Shown: positions 15,788-57,984 of the stretch, piece by piece
Layout: the number at the start of each line of letters is the position of its first letter
Numbering within the stretch: position 1 is the stretch's first letter
Translations under genes and position numbers: made by a program
Assembly: GCF_054482595.1 (NCBI RefSeq)
Contig: NZ_CM137008.1
Strand: one strand, 5' to 3'
DNA: 64,000 bases
The notes under the pieces: model-generated
The model's database searches: none
Told to the model about the DNA's origin: nothing
What the model saw: the letters and a program-made list of their open reading frames with translations, nothing else

Positions 15788-16016
15788 CGACTAAAAGCCT
15801 CTTTGCGTCACATTTTTACAACAATTATTGCAGAGAAGATTAATGCCATTGGAATGAAGAGAGTAACGAATGGTTAAACTGGCTAACCCGAATGACGAAA
15901 AATTCTGGAAAACAGCACGCAATTTCGTCAGGTGATTATTTTCGTCCCTAAGGAAACCACATAGGATGCTCACGGGTGCCTGAGACTTTCTGTTTTCAGG
16001 CTAACCGGGAATCAGA

Positions 16017-16061
16017 AAGACGAAGGCCCCGACCGATATTTCTATCAACCGAGGCCAACGA

Positions 16062-16072
<11 letters not shown>
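16017..16072 (-). ncRNA. sokB: sokB antisense RNA of the hokB/mokB locus; position inferred, boundaries approximate
   Basis: Placed antisense to the mokB translation-initiation region by analogy with hok/sok architecture; no independent sequence recognition. Confidence 0.35.
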
Positions 16073-16269
<197 letters not shown>

Positions 16270-16684: not shown

Positions 16685-16748
16685 CTTCCGATGTAGACCC
16701 GTATTCTTCGCCTGTACCACGGGTCGGTTTTAGTACAGGCGTTTTCTT
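16685..16748 (+). ncRNA. rydC: RydC small RNA (Hfq-dependent, pseudoknot-forming)
   Basis: 64 nt CTTCCGATGTAGACCCGTATTCTTCGCCTGTACCACGGGTCGGTTTTAGTACAGGCGTTTTCTT matches the RydC sequence as I remember it; ends in hairpin plus U-tract. Confidence 0.8.
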
Positions 16749-45911: not shown

Positions 45912-48900
45912 ATGATTACTATTGACGGTAATGGCGCGGTTGCTTCGGTGGCGTTTCGCACCAGTGAAGTTATCGCCATCTACCCTATTACCCCCAGTTC
46001 CACGATGGCAGAACAGGCTGATGCCTGGGCCGGAAACGGCTTGAAGAACGTTTGGGGAGACACACCACGCGTGGTTGAAATGCAGTCGGAGGCGGGTGCT
46101 ATCGCTACCGTGCATGGCGCTTTGCAGACGGGTGCCCTTTCAACATCGTTTACGTCATCGCAGGGTTTGCTGCTGATGATCCCGACGCTGTACAAACTGG
46201 CAGGCGAACTCACACCGTTTGTCCTGCATGTAGCGGCACGTACCGTTGCCACACATGCACTTTCTATTTTTGGCGATCATTCCGACGTCATGGCGGTGCG
46301 CCAGACGGGTTGCGCGATGTTGTGTGCGGCAAACGTCCAGGAAGCGCAAGACTTTGCTCTCATTTCGCACATCGCGACGCTGAAAAGCCGCGTGCCATTT
46401 ATTCATTTCTTTGATGGTTTCCGTACGTCCCACGAAATCAACAAAATTGTCCCGCTGGCCGATGACACTATTCTTGATCTCATGCCGCAGGCCGAAATTG
46501 ATGCTCATCGCGCCCGGGCGCTCAACCCGGAACATCCGGTGATCCGCGGTACGTCAGCCAATCCTGACACTTATTTCCAGTCTCGCGAAGCCACCAACCC
46601 ATGGTACAACGCGGTCTATGACCATGTTGAACAGGCGATGAATGATTTCTCTGCCGCGACAGGTCGTCAGTATCAGCCGTTTGAATATTACGGGCATCCG
46701 CAAGCGGAACGGGTGATTATCCTGATGGGCTCTGCCATTGGCACCTGTGAAGAAGTGGTTGATGAATTGCTAACCCGTGGCGAAAAAGTTGGCGTGCTGA
46801 AAGTTCGCCTGTACCGTCCCTTCTCCGCCAAACACTTGCTGCAAGCTCTGCCGGGATCCGTACGCAGCGTGGCGGTACTGGACAGAACCAAAGAACCCGG
46901 TGCCCAGGCAGAACCGCTCTATCTGGATGTAATGACCGCACTGGCAGAAGCCTTTAATAATGGCGAGCGCGAAACTCTGCCCCGTGTCATTGGTGGGCGC
47001 TATGGTCTTTCATCCAAAGAATTTGGCCCGGACTGTGTACTGGCGGTATTTGCCGAGCTCAACGCGGCTAAACCGAAAGCGCGCTTTACGGTTGGTATTT
47101 ACGATGATGTGACCAATCTGTCACTGCCGTTGCCGGAAAACACCCTGCCAAACTCGGCGAAACTGGAAGCCTTGTTTTATGGCCTTGGTAGTGATGGCAG
47201 CGTTTCCGCGACCAAAAACAATATCAAGATTATCGGTAATTCCACGCCGTGGTACGCACAGGGTTATTTTGTTTACGACTCCAAAAAGGCGGGCGGCCTG
47301 ACGGTTTCTCACCTTCGCGTGAGCGAACAGCCGATTCGTTCCGCTTATCTCATTTCCCAGGCTGATTTTGTTGGCTGCCACCAGTTGCAGTTTATCGATA
47401 AATATCAGATGGCTGAGCGTTTAAAACCTGGCGGCATTTTCCTGCTTAATACGCCGTACAGCGCAGATGAAGTGTGGTCGCGCTTGCCGCAAGAAGTTCA
47501 GGCCGTGTTAAACCAGAAAAAAGCGCGCTTCTATGTAATTAACGCAGCGAAAATCGCCCGCGAATGTGGCCTGGCGGCCCGTATTAATACCGTCATGCAG
47601 ATGGCTTTTTTCCATCTGACGCAAATTCTGCCTGGCGATAGCGCCCTCGCAGAATTGCAGGGTGCGATTGCCAAAAGTTACAGTAGCAAAGGCCAGGATC
47701 TGGTGGAACGCAACTGGCAGGCTCTGGCGCTGGCGCGTGAATCCGTAGAAGAAGTTCCGTTGCAACCGGTAAATCCGCACAGCGCCAATCGACCGCCAGT
47801 GGTTTCCGATGCCGCCCCTGATTTCGTGAAAACCGTAACCGCGGCGATGCTCGCCGGGCTTGGTGATGCCCTCCCCGTTTCGGCGCTGCCGCCAGACGGC
47901 ACCTGGCCGATGGGCACCACTCGCTGGGAAAAACGCAATATCGCCGAAGAGATCCCCATCTGGAAAGAGGAACTCTGTACCCAATGTAACCACTGCGTCG
48001 CCGCTTGCCCACACTCAGCTATTCGCGCAAAAGTGGTACCGCCTGAAGCGATGGAAAACGCCCCTGCCAGCCTGCATTCGCTGGATGTGAAATCGCGTGA
48101 TATGCGCGGGCAGAAATATGTCTTGCAGGTGGCTCCAGAAGATTGCACCGGTTGTAACCTGTGCGTCGAAGTTTGCCCGGCGAAAGACCGTCAGAATCCA
48201 GAGATTAAAGCCATCAATATGATGTCGCGCCTGGAACATGTCGAAGAAGAGAAAATCAATTACGATTTCTTCCTCAACCTGCCAGAAATCGACCGTAGCA
48301 AACTGGAACGTATTGATATTCGTACATCGCAGCTGATTACACCACTGTTTGAATATTCCGGTGCTTGCTCCGGTTGTGGCGAGACGCCGTATATTAAATT
48401 GCTGACTCAGCTCTATGGCGACCGGATGTTGATCGCTAACGCCACCGGCTGTTCTTCAATTTATGGCGGTAACCTGCCCTCTACACCGTATACCACCGAT
48501 GCCAACGGTCGTGGGCCGGCATGGGCGAACTCTCTATTTGAAGATAATGCCGAATTTGGCCTTGGTTTCCGCCTGACGGTCGATCAACACCGTGTCCGCG
48601 TGCTGCGTCTGCTGGATCAATTTGCCGATAAAATCCCGGCGGAATTACTGACGGCGTTGAAATCAGACGCCACGCCAGAGGTTCGTCGTGAACAGGTTGC
48701 AGCTTTACGCCAGCAACTCAATGATGTTGCCGAAGCACATGAACTGCTGCGTGACGCAGATGCACTGGTGGAAAAATCAATCTGGCTGATTGGTGGCGAC
48801 GGCTGGGCTTACGATATCGGCTTTGGCGGTCTGGATCATGTATTGAGTTTGACGGAAAACGTCAACATTCTGGTGCTGGATACGCAATGCTATTCCAACA

Positions 48901-49436
48901 CCGGTGGTCAGGCGTCGAAAGCGACACCGCTGGGTGCAGTAACTAAATTTGGCGAGCACGGCAAACGTAAAGCGCGTAAAGATCTTGGCGTCAGTATGAT
49001 GATGTACGGTCATGTTTATGTGGCGCAGATTTCTCTCGGCGCGCAACTGAACCAGACGGTGAAAGCGATTCAGGAAGCGGAAGCGTATCCGGGACCATCG
49101 CTGATCATTGCTTATAGCCCGTGTGAAGAGCATGGTTACGATCTGGCACTCAGCCATGACCAGATGCGCCAACTCACAGCTACCGGCTTCTGGCCGCTAT
49201 ATCGCTTCGATCCGCGTCGTGCCGATGAAGGCAAACTGCCGCTGGCGCTGGATTCACGCCCGCCGTCAGAAGCACTGGAAGAAACGTTACTTCACGAGCA
49301 ACGTTTCCGTCGTCTGAATTCGCAGCAGCCAGAAGTGGCAGAACAGTTATGGAAAGATGCTGCAGCTGATTTGCAAAAACGCTATGACTTCCTGGCACAA
49401 ATGGCCGGAAAAGCGGAAAAAAGCAACACCGATTAA
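45912..49436 (+). CDS. ydbK: Pyruvate:flavodoxin/ferredoxin oxidoreductase (PFOR)
   Basis: 1174-aa ORF with two 4Fe-4S ferredoxin motifs (CTQCNHCVAACP, CTGCNLCVEVCP) and TPP-binding region. Confidence 0.95.
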   Translation: MITIDGNGAVASVAFRTSEVIAIYPITPSSTMAEQADAWAGNGLKNVWGDTPRVVEMQSEAGAIATVHGALQTGALSTSFTSSQGLLLMIPTLYKLAGELTPFVLHVAARTVATHALSIFGDHSDVMAVRQTGCAMLCAANVQEAQDFALISHIATLKSRVPFIHFFDGFRTSHEINKIVPLADDTILDLMPQAEIDAHRARALNPEHPVIRGTSANPDTYFQSREATNPWYNAVYDHVEQAMNDFSAATGRQYQPFEYYGHPQAERVIILMGSAIGTCEEVVDELLTRGEKVGVLKVRLYRPFSAKHLLQALPGSVRSVAVLDRTKEPGAQAEPLYLDVMTALAEAFNNGERETLPRVIGGRYGLSSKEFGPDCVLAVFAELNAAKPKARFTVGIYDDVTNLSLPLPENTLPNSAKLEALFYGLGSDGSVSATKNNIKIIGNSTPWYAQGYFVYDSKKAGGLTVSHLRVSEQPIRSAYLISQADFVGCHQLQFIDKYQMAERLKPGGIFLLNTPYSADEVWSRLPQEVQAVLNQKKARFYVINAAKIARECGLAARINTVMQMAFFHLTQILPGDSALAELQGAIAKSYSSKGQDLVERNWQALALARESVEEVPLQPVNPHSANRPPVVSDAAPDFVKTVTAAMLAGLGDALPVSALPPDGTWPMGTTRWEKRNIAEEIPIWKEELCTQCNHCVAACPHSAIRAKVVPPEAMENAPASLHSLDVKSRDMRGQKYVLQVAPEDCTGCNLCVEVCPAKDRQNPEIKAINMMSRLEHVEEEKINYDFFLNLPEIDRSKLERIDIRTSQLITPLFEYSGACSGCGETPYIKLLTQLYGDRMLIANATGCSSIYGGNLPSTPYTTDANGRGPAWANSLFEDNAEFGLGFRLTVDQHRVRVLRLLDQFADKIPAELLTALKSDATPEVRREQVAALRQQLNDVAEAHELLRDADALVEKSIWLIGGDGWAYDIGFGGLDHVLSLTENVNILVLDTQCYSNTGGQASKATPLGAVTKFGEHGKRKARKDLGVSMMMYGHVYVAQISLGAQLNQTVKAIQEAEAYPGPSLIIAYSPCEEHGYDLALSHDQMRQLTATGFWPLYRFDPRRADEGKLPLALDSRPPSEALEETLLHEQRFRRLNSQQPEVAEQLWKDAAADLQKRYDFLAQMAGKAEKSNTD

Positions 49437-49464
49437 ATGCTCTGGATAAGGATTATCCAATTCT

Positions 49465-49500
49465 AAAAAAAAGCCCGGACGACTGTTCGGGCTTGTCTTT
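49465..49500. terminator. Bidirectional intrinsic terminator shared by ydbK (+) and micC (-)
   Basis: Hairpin gcccggacgactgttcgggc flanked by A8 upstream and ttgtcttttt downstream. Confidence 0.6.
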
Positions 49501-49574
49501 TTATATGTTGGAAAATCAGTGGCAATGCAATGGCCCAACAGAAAATAAAATCTGTGACAATAAAGGCATATAAC
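49466..49574 (-). ncRNA. micC: MicC small RNA (porin-mRNA repressor)
   Basis: Minus strand reads GTTATATGCCTTTATTGTCACAGATTTTATTTTCTGTTGGGCCATTGCATTGCC...GCCCGAACAGTCGTCCGGGCTTTTTTT, matching MicC as I remember it; lies between ydbK and ompN. Confidence 0.8.
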
Positions 49575-49801
49575 CCGCGCAGAATAACGTATAGAAAATT
49601 AAAAGTATAATTTTTATTTTGTATGTATTATCTTCGATACATTCACCAGACTTATTATCATTTCAGAGGAATTATTTGATTAAGGTTTTACTTAAGGCGT
49701 AACAAATGATATTTATCAGCTAACTGAACTTCTCCTTTAGGATGTTTTCACTCCCCGAAATGGGGATAAAAGGCAAATAAAATAACTAAAGGATTTATTC
49801 A

Positions 49802-50935
49802 ATGAAAAGCAAAGTACTGGCACTTTTAATTCCTGCCCTGCTCGCCGCAGGTGCTGCACATGCAGCCGAAGTTTATAATAAAGACGGCAACAAATTAGAT
49901 CTGTATGGCAAAGTTGATGGCCTGCATTATTTTTCTGATAATTCAGCGAAAGATGGCGACCAGAGCTATGCGCGTCTGGGTTTTAAAGGCGAAACCCAAA
50001 TTAACGATCAACTTACTGGCTACGGTCAATGGGAATACAATATTCAGGCAAACAACACTGAATCTTCAAAAAACCAGTCATGGACCCGTCTGGCATTTGC
50101 CGGACTGAAATTTGCAGATTACGGTTCTTTCGATTACGGACGTAATTATGGCGTAATGTACGACATCGAAGGCTGGACCGATATGCTGCCTGAATTTGGC
50201 GGTGACTCTTATACCAATGCAGACAACTTTATGACTGGTCGAGCCAATGGCGTCGCGACTTATCGTAATACTGATTTCTTCGGTCTGGTAAATGGTCTGA
50301 ACTTCGCGGTGCAGTATCAAGGTAACAACGAAGGAGCCAGTAATGGTCAGGAAGGCACCAACAACGGACGTGATGTTCGCCATGAAAACGGTGACGGCTG
50401 GGGTCTTTCCACAACATATGATTTAGGCATGGGCTTTAGCGCTGGTGCGGCATACACATCTTCTGACCGCACCAATGACCAGGTTAACCATACTGCGGCG
50501 GGTGGTGATAAAGCAGACGCGTGGACTGCTGGGCTAAAATACGATGCTAACAATATTTACCTGGCAACCATGTATTCAGAAACGCGTAATATGACCCCGT
50601 TTGGCGACAGCGATTATGCTGTTGCAAACAAAACCCAGAACTTTGAAGTCACTGCACAGTACCAGTTTGATTTTGGTCTGCGTCCGGCAGTCTCTTTCCT
50701 GATGTCTAAAGGCCGTGACCTGCACGCTGCCGGTGGTGCAGACAACCCGGCAGGTGTTGATGATAAAGATCTGGTTAAATACGCCGATGTTGGCGCGACT
50801 TACTATTTCAATAAAAACATGTCCACCTATGTTGACTATAAAATCAACCTGTTGGATGAAGATGACAGTTTCTACGCTGCCAACGGCATCTCTACCGATG
50901 ATATTGTCGCTTTAGGTCTGGTTTATCAGTTCTAA
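49802..50935 (+). CDS. ompN: Outer membrane porin OmpN (OmpC/F family)
   Basis: 377-aa ORF with signal peptide [21 protein letters not shown] and C-terminal ...GLVYQF. Confidence 0.9.
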
Positions 50936-54382: not shown

Positions 54383-54505
54383 CAAAAAAAAGCCGACTCA
54401 TCAAAGTCGGCGTCGTACGAATCAATTGTGCTATGCAGTAATTCAAAAAAGGAAGTAAGACAATATGGAGCGCAACGCCCATCGCTTGACGTTGCATTCA
54501 CCTGC
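54383..54505 (-). ncRNA. fnrS: FnrS small RNA (FNR-activated)
   Basis: Minus strand reads GCAGGTGAATGCAACGTCAAGCGATGGGCGTTGCGCTCC...GCCGACTTTGATGAGTCGGCTTTTTTTT, matching FnrS as I remember it; terminator hairpin 54392-54411 plus U8. Confidence 0.8.
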
Positions 54506-57881: not shown

Positions 57882-57976
57882 CACCGGCGCAGAGGAGACA
57901 ATGCCGGATTTAAGACGCGGATGCACTGCTGTGTGTACTATAGAGTCTGGCGGATGTCGACAGACTCTATTTTTTT
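57882..57976 (+). ncRNA. mcaS: McaS (IsrA) small RNA
   Basis: sigma70-like promoter TTGGCA-N18-TATAAC (57846-57875), transcript ACCGGCGCAGAGGAGACAATGCCGG...TAGAGTCTGGCGGATGTCGACAGACTCTA plus T7; matches McaS as I remember it. Confidence 0.75.
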
Positions 57977-57984
57977 ATGCAGTT

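Follow-up and report, generated by a model that had tools for sequence, protein, structure and literature searches.

Asymmetric bidirectional hairpin between micC and convergent ydbK in Escherichia coli, a probable intrinsic terminator for both genes

The stretch of DNA analysed here (the window; 64 kb) is part of an E. coli chromosome and is oriented in reverse with respect to MG1655. Positions 49300–49900 are 100% identical to the sequence of many complete genomes, with a match in 5412 of the 5426. The segment holds the gene of the small RNA MicC, placed between ydbK (nifJ), with which it is convergent, and ompN, from which it diverges, as in E. coli K-12.

45912–49436, + strand: coding sequence of ydbK/nifJ, pyruvate:flavodoxin/ferredoxin oxidoreductase, 1174 amino acids (ORF list; RefSeq nifJ/ydbK on identical E. 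coli DNA).
49466–49574, − strand: micC, an sRNA of ∼109 nt (Rfam RF00121; RefSeq ncRNA in MG1655; 109-nt length in PMC5745476).
49555–49574, − strand: conserved 5′ end of MicC with the seed (target-pairing) region, GTTATATGCCTTTATTGTCA = GUUAUAUGCCUUUAUUGUCA (a pattern unique within the window).
49581–49586, − strand: probable −10 hexamer of micC, TATTCT (read from the sequence, −12 to −7 relative to the 5′ G).
49802–50935, + strand: coding sequence of ompN, which follows ydbK in the same direction and diverges from micC (ORF list; RefSeq).

The Rfam model RF00121 (MicC) matches the minus strand from 49577 to 49457 over model positions 1–123 of 123, i.e. at full length, with a score of 125.3 bits (gathering score 90) and an E value of 2e-19. 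The 5′ G of MicC is at 49574, and an RNA with the stated length of 109 nt (PMC5745476) would end at 49466. A consensus scan of the window made no call at the −10 hexamer. MicC was reportedly described by Chen and coworkers in 2004 (J Bacteriol 186:6689). In the RefSeq annotation of MG1655, the ncRNA micC (1437121..1437231) is flanked by ompN (1435760..1436893, − strand) and ydbK (1437260..1440784, − strand). In sequence, length, 5′ seed, terminator and location between ompN and ydbK the gene here matches this known E. coli sRNA, apart from a tail of T8 in the window strain versus T9 in MG1655, with no other difference of substance; the gene at 49466–49574 is the known E. coli micC. MicC represses the ompC and ompD mRNAs in an Hfq-dependent manner in E. 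coli and Salmonella (PMC5745476).

The ydbK reading frame ends in ...AEKSNTD with the stop codon TAA at 49434–49436, and the 3′ end of MicC lies 28–29 nt from this stop. The features around the two gene ends are as follows.

49465–49472, both strands: A8/T8 run, which MicC carries as its poly-U tail (− strand) and which stands upstream of the ydbK-sense terminator as an A-tract (+ strand).
49471–49494, both strands: shared terminator hairpin, with the GC core GCCCGGACGACTGTTCGGGC = gcccggacgactgttcgggc at 49473–49492.
49493–49504, + strand: ydbK-sense U-rich tail TTGTCTTTTTAT (tail score 3.24); in the MicC sense this is the A-rich AUAAAAAGACAA just 5′ of the MicC terminator.

The stem of the hairpin has 10 bp, including two flanking A-U pairs, and closes a loop of 4 nt. 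It has a folding energy of −15.8 kcal/mol in the ydbK sense (one G·U pair) and −11.8 kcal/mol in the MicC sense (one A·C mismatch). The tails were scored over the 15 nt following each arm, with a weight that decays by a factor of 0.9 per T and 0.6 otherwise and is summed over the T positions, and with a threshold of 3.0; the MicC side reaches 5.22 versus 3.24 for the ydbK side. In the MicC direction the GC-rich 10-bp stem is followed directly by U8, where at least seven are required of an intrinsic terminator. In the ydbK direction the GC-rich hairpin is followed directly by the U-rich tract UUGUCUUUUU, in which eight of ten positions are T, with a G at position 3 and a C at position 5 breaking the run; this too is the sequence pattern of an intrinsic terminator. 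One hairpin with an A-tract and a U-tract on its flanks, placed between convergent transcription units, has the make-up of a bidirectional terminator. The consensus scanner calls a terminator on the + strand only, because the A·C mismatch of the MicC-sense stem is a G·U pair in the ydbK sense.

A preliminary description made from the sequence had placed micC at 49465–49574, convergent with ydbK and with its 3′ end about 30 nt from the ydbK stop. The span agrees with the micC gene to within one base (Rfam, RefSeq and the 109-nt length), the convergence is borne out by both the ORF list and the RefSeq annotation, and the distance in the sequence is the 28–29 nt given above. The same description had the hairpin flanked by an A-tract and a T-tract: the A8 run stands at 49465–49472 on the + strand, and the T-tract on the ydbK side is present but interrupted (8 T in 10).

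A scan of the whole 64 kb window took in hairpins with stems of 7 bp or more that include 5 or more GC pairs. There are 44 such hairpins, five of which have a tail score of at least 3.0 on one side only; the shared hairpin (49473–49492) is the only one that scores at least 3.0 on both strands. Thirty dinucleotide-preserving shuffles gave a mean of 0.43 one-sided sites and zero two-sided sites. Four further sRNAs lie above the Rfam cut-offs in the window, namely FnrS (54388–54505, − strand), McaS (57883–57978, + strand), RydC (16685–16748, + strand) and Sok (15974–16125, + strand), and the T-tail scan found no two-sided terminator at any of them.

Published maps of RNA 3′ ends place a terminus of ydbK at this hairpin. 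The ydbK entries in Supplementary Data 2 and 3 of the TRS study (PMC10687069) give a minus-strand 3′ terminus with a dominant position of MG1655 1437194, assigned to ydbK and shown with the sequence AUUAUCCAAUUCUAAAAAAAAAGCCCGGACGACUGUUCGGGCUUGUCUUUUU and the shared hairpin at −16.9 kcal/mol. In these entries the terminus has a signal of 0.93 in MG1655 RNAtag-seq (Barsheshet sheet; adjusted p values of 1e-105, 3e-74 and 4e-83), of 1.0 in the re-analysed Term-seq data of Dar & Sorek for BW25113 and of 0.97 in the authors' own paired RNAtag-seq/Term-seq, a higher value meaning lower local read-through (PMC10687069). Position 1437194 (− strand) corresponds to 49501 in the window, the fourth U of the UUUUU run at 49498–49502. 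The peak as listed runs from 1437187/93 to 1437201/02, and its bounds of 1437187–1437202 correspond to 49493–49508. The ydbK end at 49501 is 7 nt past the extended stem and 9 nt past the GC core, and it defines a 3′ UTR that overlaps MicC by ∼36 nt.

49437–49501, + strand: 3′ UTR of ydbK, 65 nt (mapped TRS terminus converted to the window).

The RefSeq annotation, the Rfam model and the stated length of 109 nt all place the 3′ end of MicC in the poly-U that follows the hairpin directly. Among the TRS table rows listed there is no MicC 3′ end, and the ydbK end is sharp there in exponential LB cultures. Rows labelled 'nifJ' in the TRS tables are from Listeria and were discarded as irrelevant to ydbK. 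The curated Term-seq set of Adams 2021 (PMC7815308) has no 3′ end on either strand at 14369xx–14372xx and no micC or ydbK rows; this silence is probably due to low expression and is uninformative. The SMRT-Cappable-seq supplements mention neither micC nor ydbK. The proposal in the preliminary description that the hairpin can terminate both genes thus finds support from the published ydbK termini, which lie directly past the hairpin and not elsewhere in three data sets, and from the Rfam model and RefSeq annotation, which keep the MicC 3′ end at the hairpin and not outside it.

We consider that the site is probably a classical but asymmetric bidirectional intrinsic terminator, strong for MicC and good but leaky for ydbK. 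The Rho-independent terminator of MicC would consist of the 10-bp GC-rich hairpin and U7–8, and would also serve as the Hfq-binding 3′ module, as in Hfq-dependent sRNAs. The same DNA would work in reverse for the convergent ydbK (nifJ) mRNA: on this strand the palindrome is predicted to fold into a more stable hairpin, and the A-rich stretch before the MicC terminator would supply the U-rich tail UUGUCUUUUU. Transcripts of ydbK would then end 7–10 nt past the stem, so that the two RNAs would overlap by ∼36 nt at their 3′ ends. Termination of MicC would be the conserved, primary function and termination of ydbK a secondary and leaky one; most ydbK transcripts would stop at the hairpin in ordinary growth, and some would read through micC (in antisense) into ompN under strong induction of ydbK.

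The first part of Supplementary file 1 of Adams 2021 supplied 25 hairpin-associated Term-seq 3′ ends on which the strength of the ydbK side was calibrated by the same scoring. Over 10 nt of tail these ends have scores (T10) from 0.1 to 5.4, with nine of the 25 below 1. The ydbK side, with a T10 of 3.11, falls in the upper third, and only seven of the 25 equal or exceed it. As to leakage, the listed TRS rows class the ydbK terminus as 'alternative primary in TU' (PMC10687069), and therefore the BioCyc annotation has ydbK upstream of another gene, ompN. According to the account of Fabrega 2012 in PMC6176095, ydbK and ompN are 'coexpressed in an operon' that is activated by SoxS in a multidrug-resistant strain. 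Since ydbK is not the last gene of its annotated transcription unit and its co-expression with ompN has been reported, the terminator leaks; some polymerases get past the hairpin, at any rate under strong induction of ydbK, and the resulting read-through transcripts cover all of micC in antisense. This leakiness would depend on the growth condition. The + sense RNA from the hairpin to ompN has no C-rich, G-poor stretch (C is 16%, and no 78-nt window exceeds 21% C or a C/G ratio of 1.43), and Adams 2021 (PMC7815308) has no Rho-dependent region at the locus. An origin of the ydbK end in Rho-dependent termination followed by trimming is without positive support.

A mapped 3′ end alone cannot separate termination from trimming by 3′ exonucleases back to a hairpin, and both Term-seq and RNAtag-seq show stable ends, not termination events. 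The hairpin could accordingly terminate MicC only, with the ydbK ends left by PNPase or RNase II trimming of read-through or Rho-terminated RNA. The imperfect tail on the ydbK side would suit this explanation, as would the Adams 2021 ends with T10 below 1 (9/25), from which it is clear that hairpins alone can define ends, and the co-expression of ydbK and ompN as cited, which shows that polymerase can pass the hairpin. We nevertheless regard it as unlikely: an end in a U5 run at 7 nt from the extended stem and 9 nt from the GC core has the geometry expected of intrinsic termination, the tail score belongs to the upper third of the scored ends, local read-through is very low (signal 0.93–1.0) and the downstream RNA has neither an obvious rut-like C-rich region nor a Rho-dependent region in Adams 2021. 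The make-up of the site, its conservation and where the ydbK ends lie are direct observations; we infer that these ends are made by intrinsic termination rather than by trimming.

It is very unlikely, in our estimate, that the hairpin only pauses polymerase and that release on both strands results from head-on collisions between polymerases transcribing micC and ydbK (Ju 2019; Wang 2022). Collision-dependent overlapping bidirectional terminators such as that of ynaJ–uspE are described as unlike intrinsic terminators and as needing dense converging traffic (10.1101/2022.10.23.513370). The micC/ydbK site shares the architecture of that class, as a convergent pair whose 3′ ends overlap across a hairpin, but it looks intrinsic, with a canonical hairpin and U-rich stretch on either strand. 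The collision model would also predict a need for dense traffic in both directions, whereas micC and ydbK are both weakly expressed (neither has an end in Adams 2021), and the site appears to work for ydbK, giving a sharp end in the TRS rows listed, where no MicC 3′ end is called. The highly significant ydbK-strand terminus at the hairpin, with low read-through in three data sets, contradicts a plain ydbK–ompN operon for which the hairpin is irrelevant and whose transcripts end only after ompN; we give this explanation almost no credence, even though the listed TRS class has ydbK as not the last gene in its transcription unit and co-expression with ompN is reported in the citing paper.

For a comparison across enterobacteria, the 20-mer at the 5′ end of MicC was searched for in a set of species-representative genomes. 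This gave 45 stretches, 34 of which are enterobacterial micC loci; the other 11 are chance matches to the pattern in unrelated taxa and were left out. With the window and MG1655 the set comprises 36 loci from Escherichia, Citrobacter, Salmonella, Klebsiella, Pseudocitrobacter, Superficieibacter and others. A match to the C-terminus of a convergent nifJ is present at every locus with enough downstream DNA, except for one Citrobacter locus (L032). The ompN gene adjoins micC in most loci; no ompN match was found next to micC in the two Salmonella loci (L024 and L042; Salmonella enterica arizonae and diarizonae), and nifJ is convergent there. The shared hairpin is present in 36 of 36. Across the 36 aligned terminators AAGCCCGAA...CGGGCTTTTTTT does not vary, nor do eight of the ten stem pairs, and there is one compensatory change from C-G to U-A, seen in four distinct sequences; because eight of the ten pairs never vary, covariation lends little support either way. 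The MicC-side tail is T7–T10 in all 36 loci, with a score of 4.7–6.1. On the ydbK side the tail is good only in Escherichia and in one of the two Pseudocitrobacter loci and is weak (2.3–2.7) outside Escherichia:

Escherichia: TTGTCTT(T/C)TTAT, score 2.9–3.3.
Pseudocitrobacter faecalis: TTGTCTTTTATT, score 3.1.
Klebsiella: TTGTCGTTTTAC, score 2.6.
Most Citrobacter and Salmonella: TTGTCAATTTAT (UUGUCAAUUUAU), score 2.4–2.5.
Superficieibacter: TTGTCATAAA, score 2.3.

The weakness of the ydbK-side tail outside Escherichia means that the two-way function is not a conserved constraint. As the MicC-side tail is invariant and the ydbK-side tail varies, the conserved constraint is the terminator of MicC itself; termination and the binding of sRNAs by Hfq both require a long poly-U tail. 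Judged from the tail sequences, the capacity in the ydbK direction appears to be a lineage-specific extra that is strongest in Escherichia.

Some smaller differences among the loci can be added. At 49486, in the 3′ arm, K-12-like E. coli carry a T-to-C change (in the MicC sense) that gives an A·C mismatch in the MicC stem and a G·U pair for ydbK. The change leaves the hairpin ∼4 kcal/mol less stable for MicC than for ydbK; the stem is fully paired in most other loci. Among the 36 loci the A·C mismatch is found only in the window, in MG1655 (L001) and in one other Escherichia genome (L043). A small AT-rich hairpin, TGGATAA-GGA-TTATCCA (49443–49459), lies in the ydbK 3′ UTR, past the stop codon and ahead of the A8 run; it folds in both senses and is downstream of the MicC 3′ end. 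Its stem is kept, with a variable loop, in the Escherichia loci only, and the spacers of Citrobacter, Klebsiella and Salmonella differ. The automated search for a second hairpin in the nifJ–micC spacer took wrong reading frames in many loci, and its result, that the hairpin is Escherichia-specific, is qualitative only.

Read-through into the downstream gene also occurs at the rpsO–sraG–pnp locus. There, too, the gene of an sRNA sits between two protein genes that share one direction and is itself read in the opposite one, and in E. coli the terminators of the upstream gene rpsO and of the sRNA sraG 'are the same bidirectional terminator' (PMC5029454). The genes and the sRNA are others, and the two-way terminator and co-transcription at rpsO–pnp have been dissected experimentally, whereas those at ydbK–micC–ompN are known only from genome-wide tables and one RT-PCR report. 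A-tracts are described as the essential feature of bidirectional terminators, and the order A-tract, hairpin, U-tract is their recognized signature (PMC12207403). The micC site resembles the classical bidirectional intrinsic terminators in its A8 run, 10-bp GC-rich stem and U-rich tail, and in that the ydbK 3′ end as mapped and the MicC 3′ end as annotated fall on opposite sides of one hairpin. It differs from them in its asymmetry, with a perfect U7–8 on one side and the interrupted UUGUCUUUUU on the other, and in that conservation of the weaker side does not extend past Escherichia.

In the literature searched, we found no paper with an explicit statement that one terminator serves both micC and ydbK. 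The shared terminator is already known in substance, as the public 3′-end data show the ydbK end at the hairpin and the step from there is routine. Its weight as a discovery is small: MicC is textbook knowledge, together with its terminator and its place between ompN and ydbK, and the same layout is known at rpsO/sraG/pnp. For annotation, ydbK gains a defined 3′ UTR of 65 nt, and the ydbK–ompN 'operon' crosses a leaky terminator.

A more far-reaching idea, to which we attach a low probability, is that the ydbK terminator acts as a conditional gate. Transcription of ydbK driven hard by SoxS would read through the hairpin, collide with transcription of micC and produce a ydbK–ompN RNA with a perfect, full complement of MicC, which would turn OmpN on and neutralize MicC. 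Were this the case, the neutralization would proceed by antisense titration or by transcriptional interference, and would relieve the repression of OmpC/OmpD under oxidative stress. On the Affymetrix arrays of Blanchard et al. 2007, 'MicC' and ydbK were both among the SoxR-dependent signals induced by paraquat, and in Dam et al. 2017 neither MarA nor RamA affected a micC-lacZ fusion. The array signal may, as a matter of speculation, be ydbK read-through across micC in antisense; under the gate it would be read-through RNA and not MicC. Measurements of 'MicC' that are not strand-specific may likewise report ydbK read-through under SoxS-inducing conditions.

Two of the loci depart from the usual layout. 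In the Citrobacter locus mentioned above (L032; MAG HRGM_Genome_0066), positions ∼1–135 hold the MicC terminator followed by an unrelated strong GC hairpin, CCCCCAGCCTAGCTGGGGG; no nifJ 3′ end was found in the 247 nt available, and the usual convergence of nifJ and micC may be broken there. In E. coli YZMc3-1 (L047; NZ_CP123244.1), a chicken isolate, an IS1 element is inserted inside micC at the position corresponding to 49511–49519 in the window; together with its 9-bp target duplication, the 768-bp element splits the sRNA gene and adds 777 bp between ydbK and ompN.
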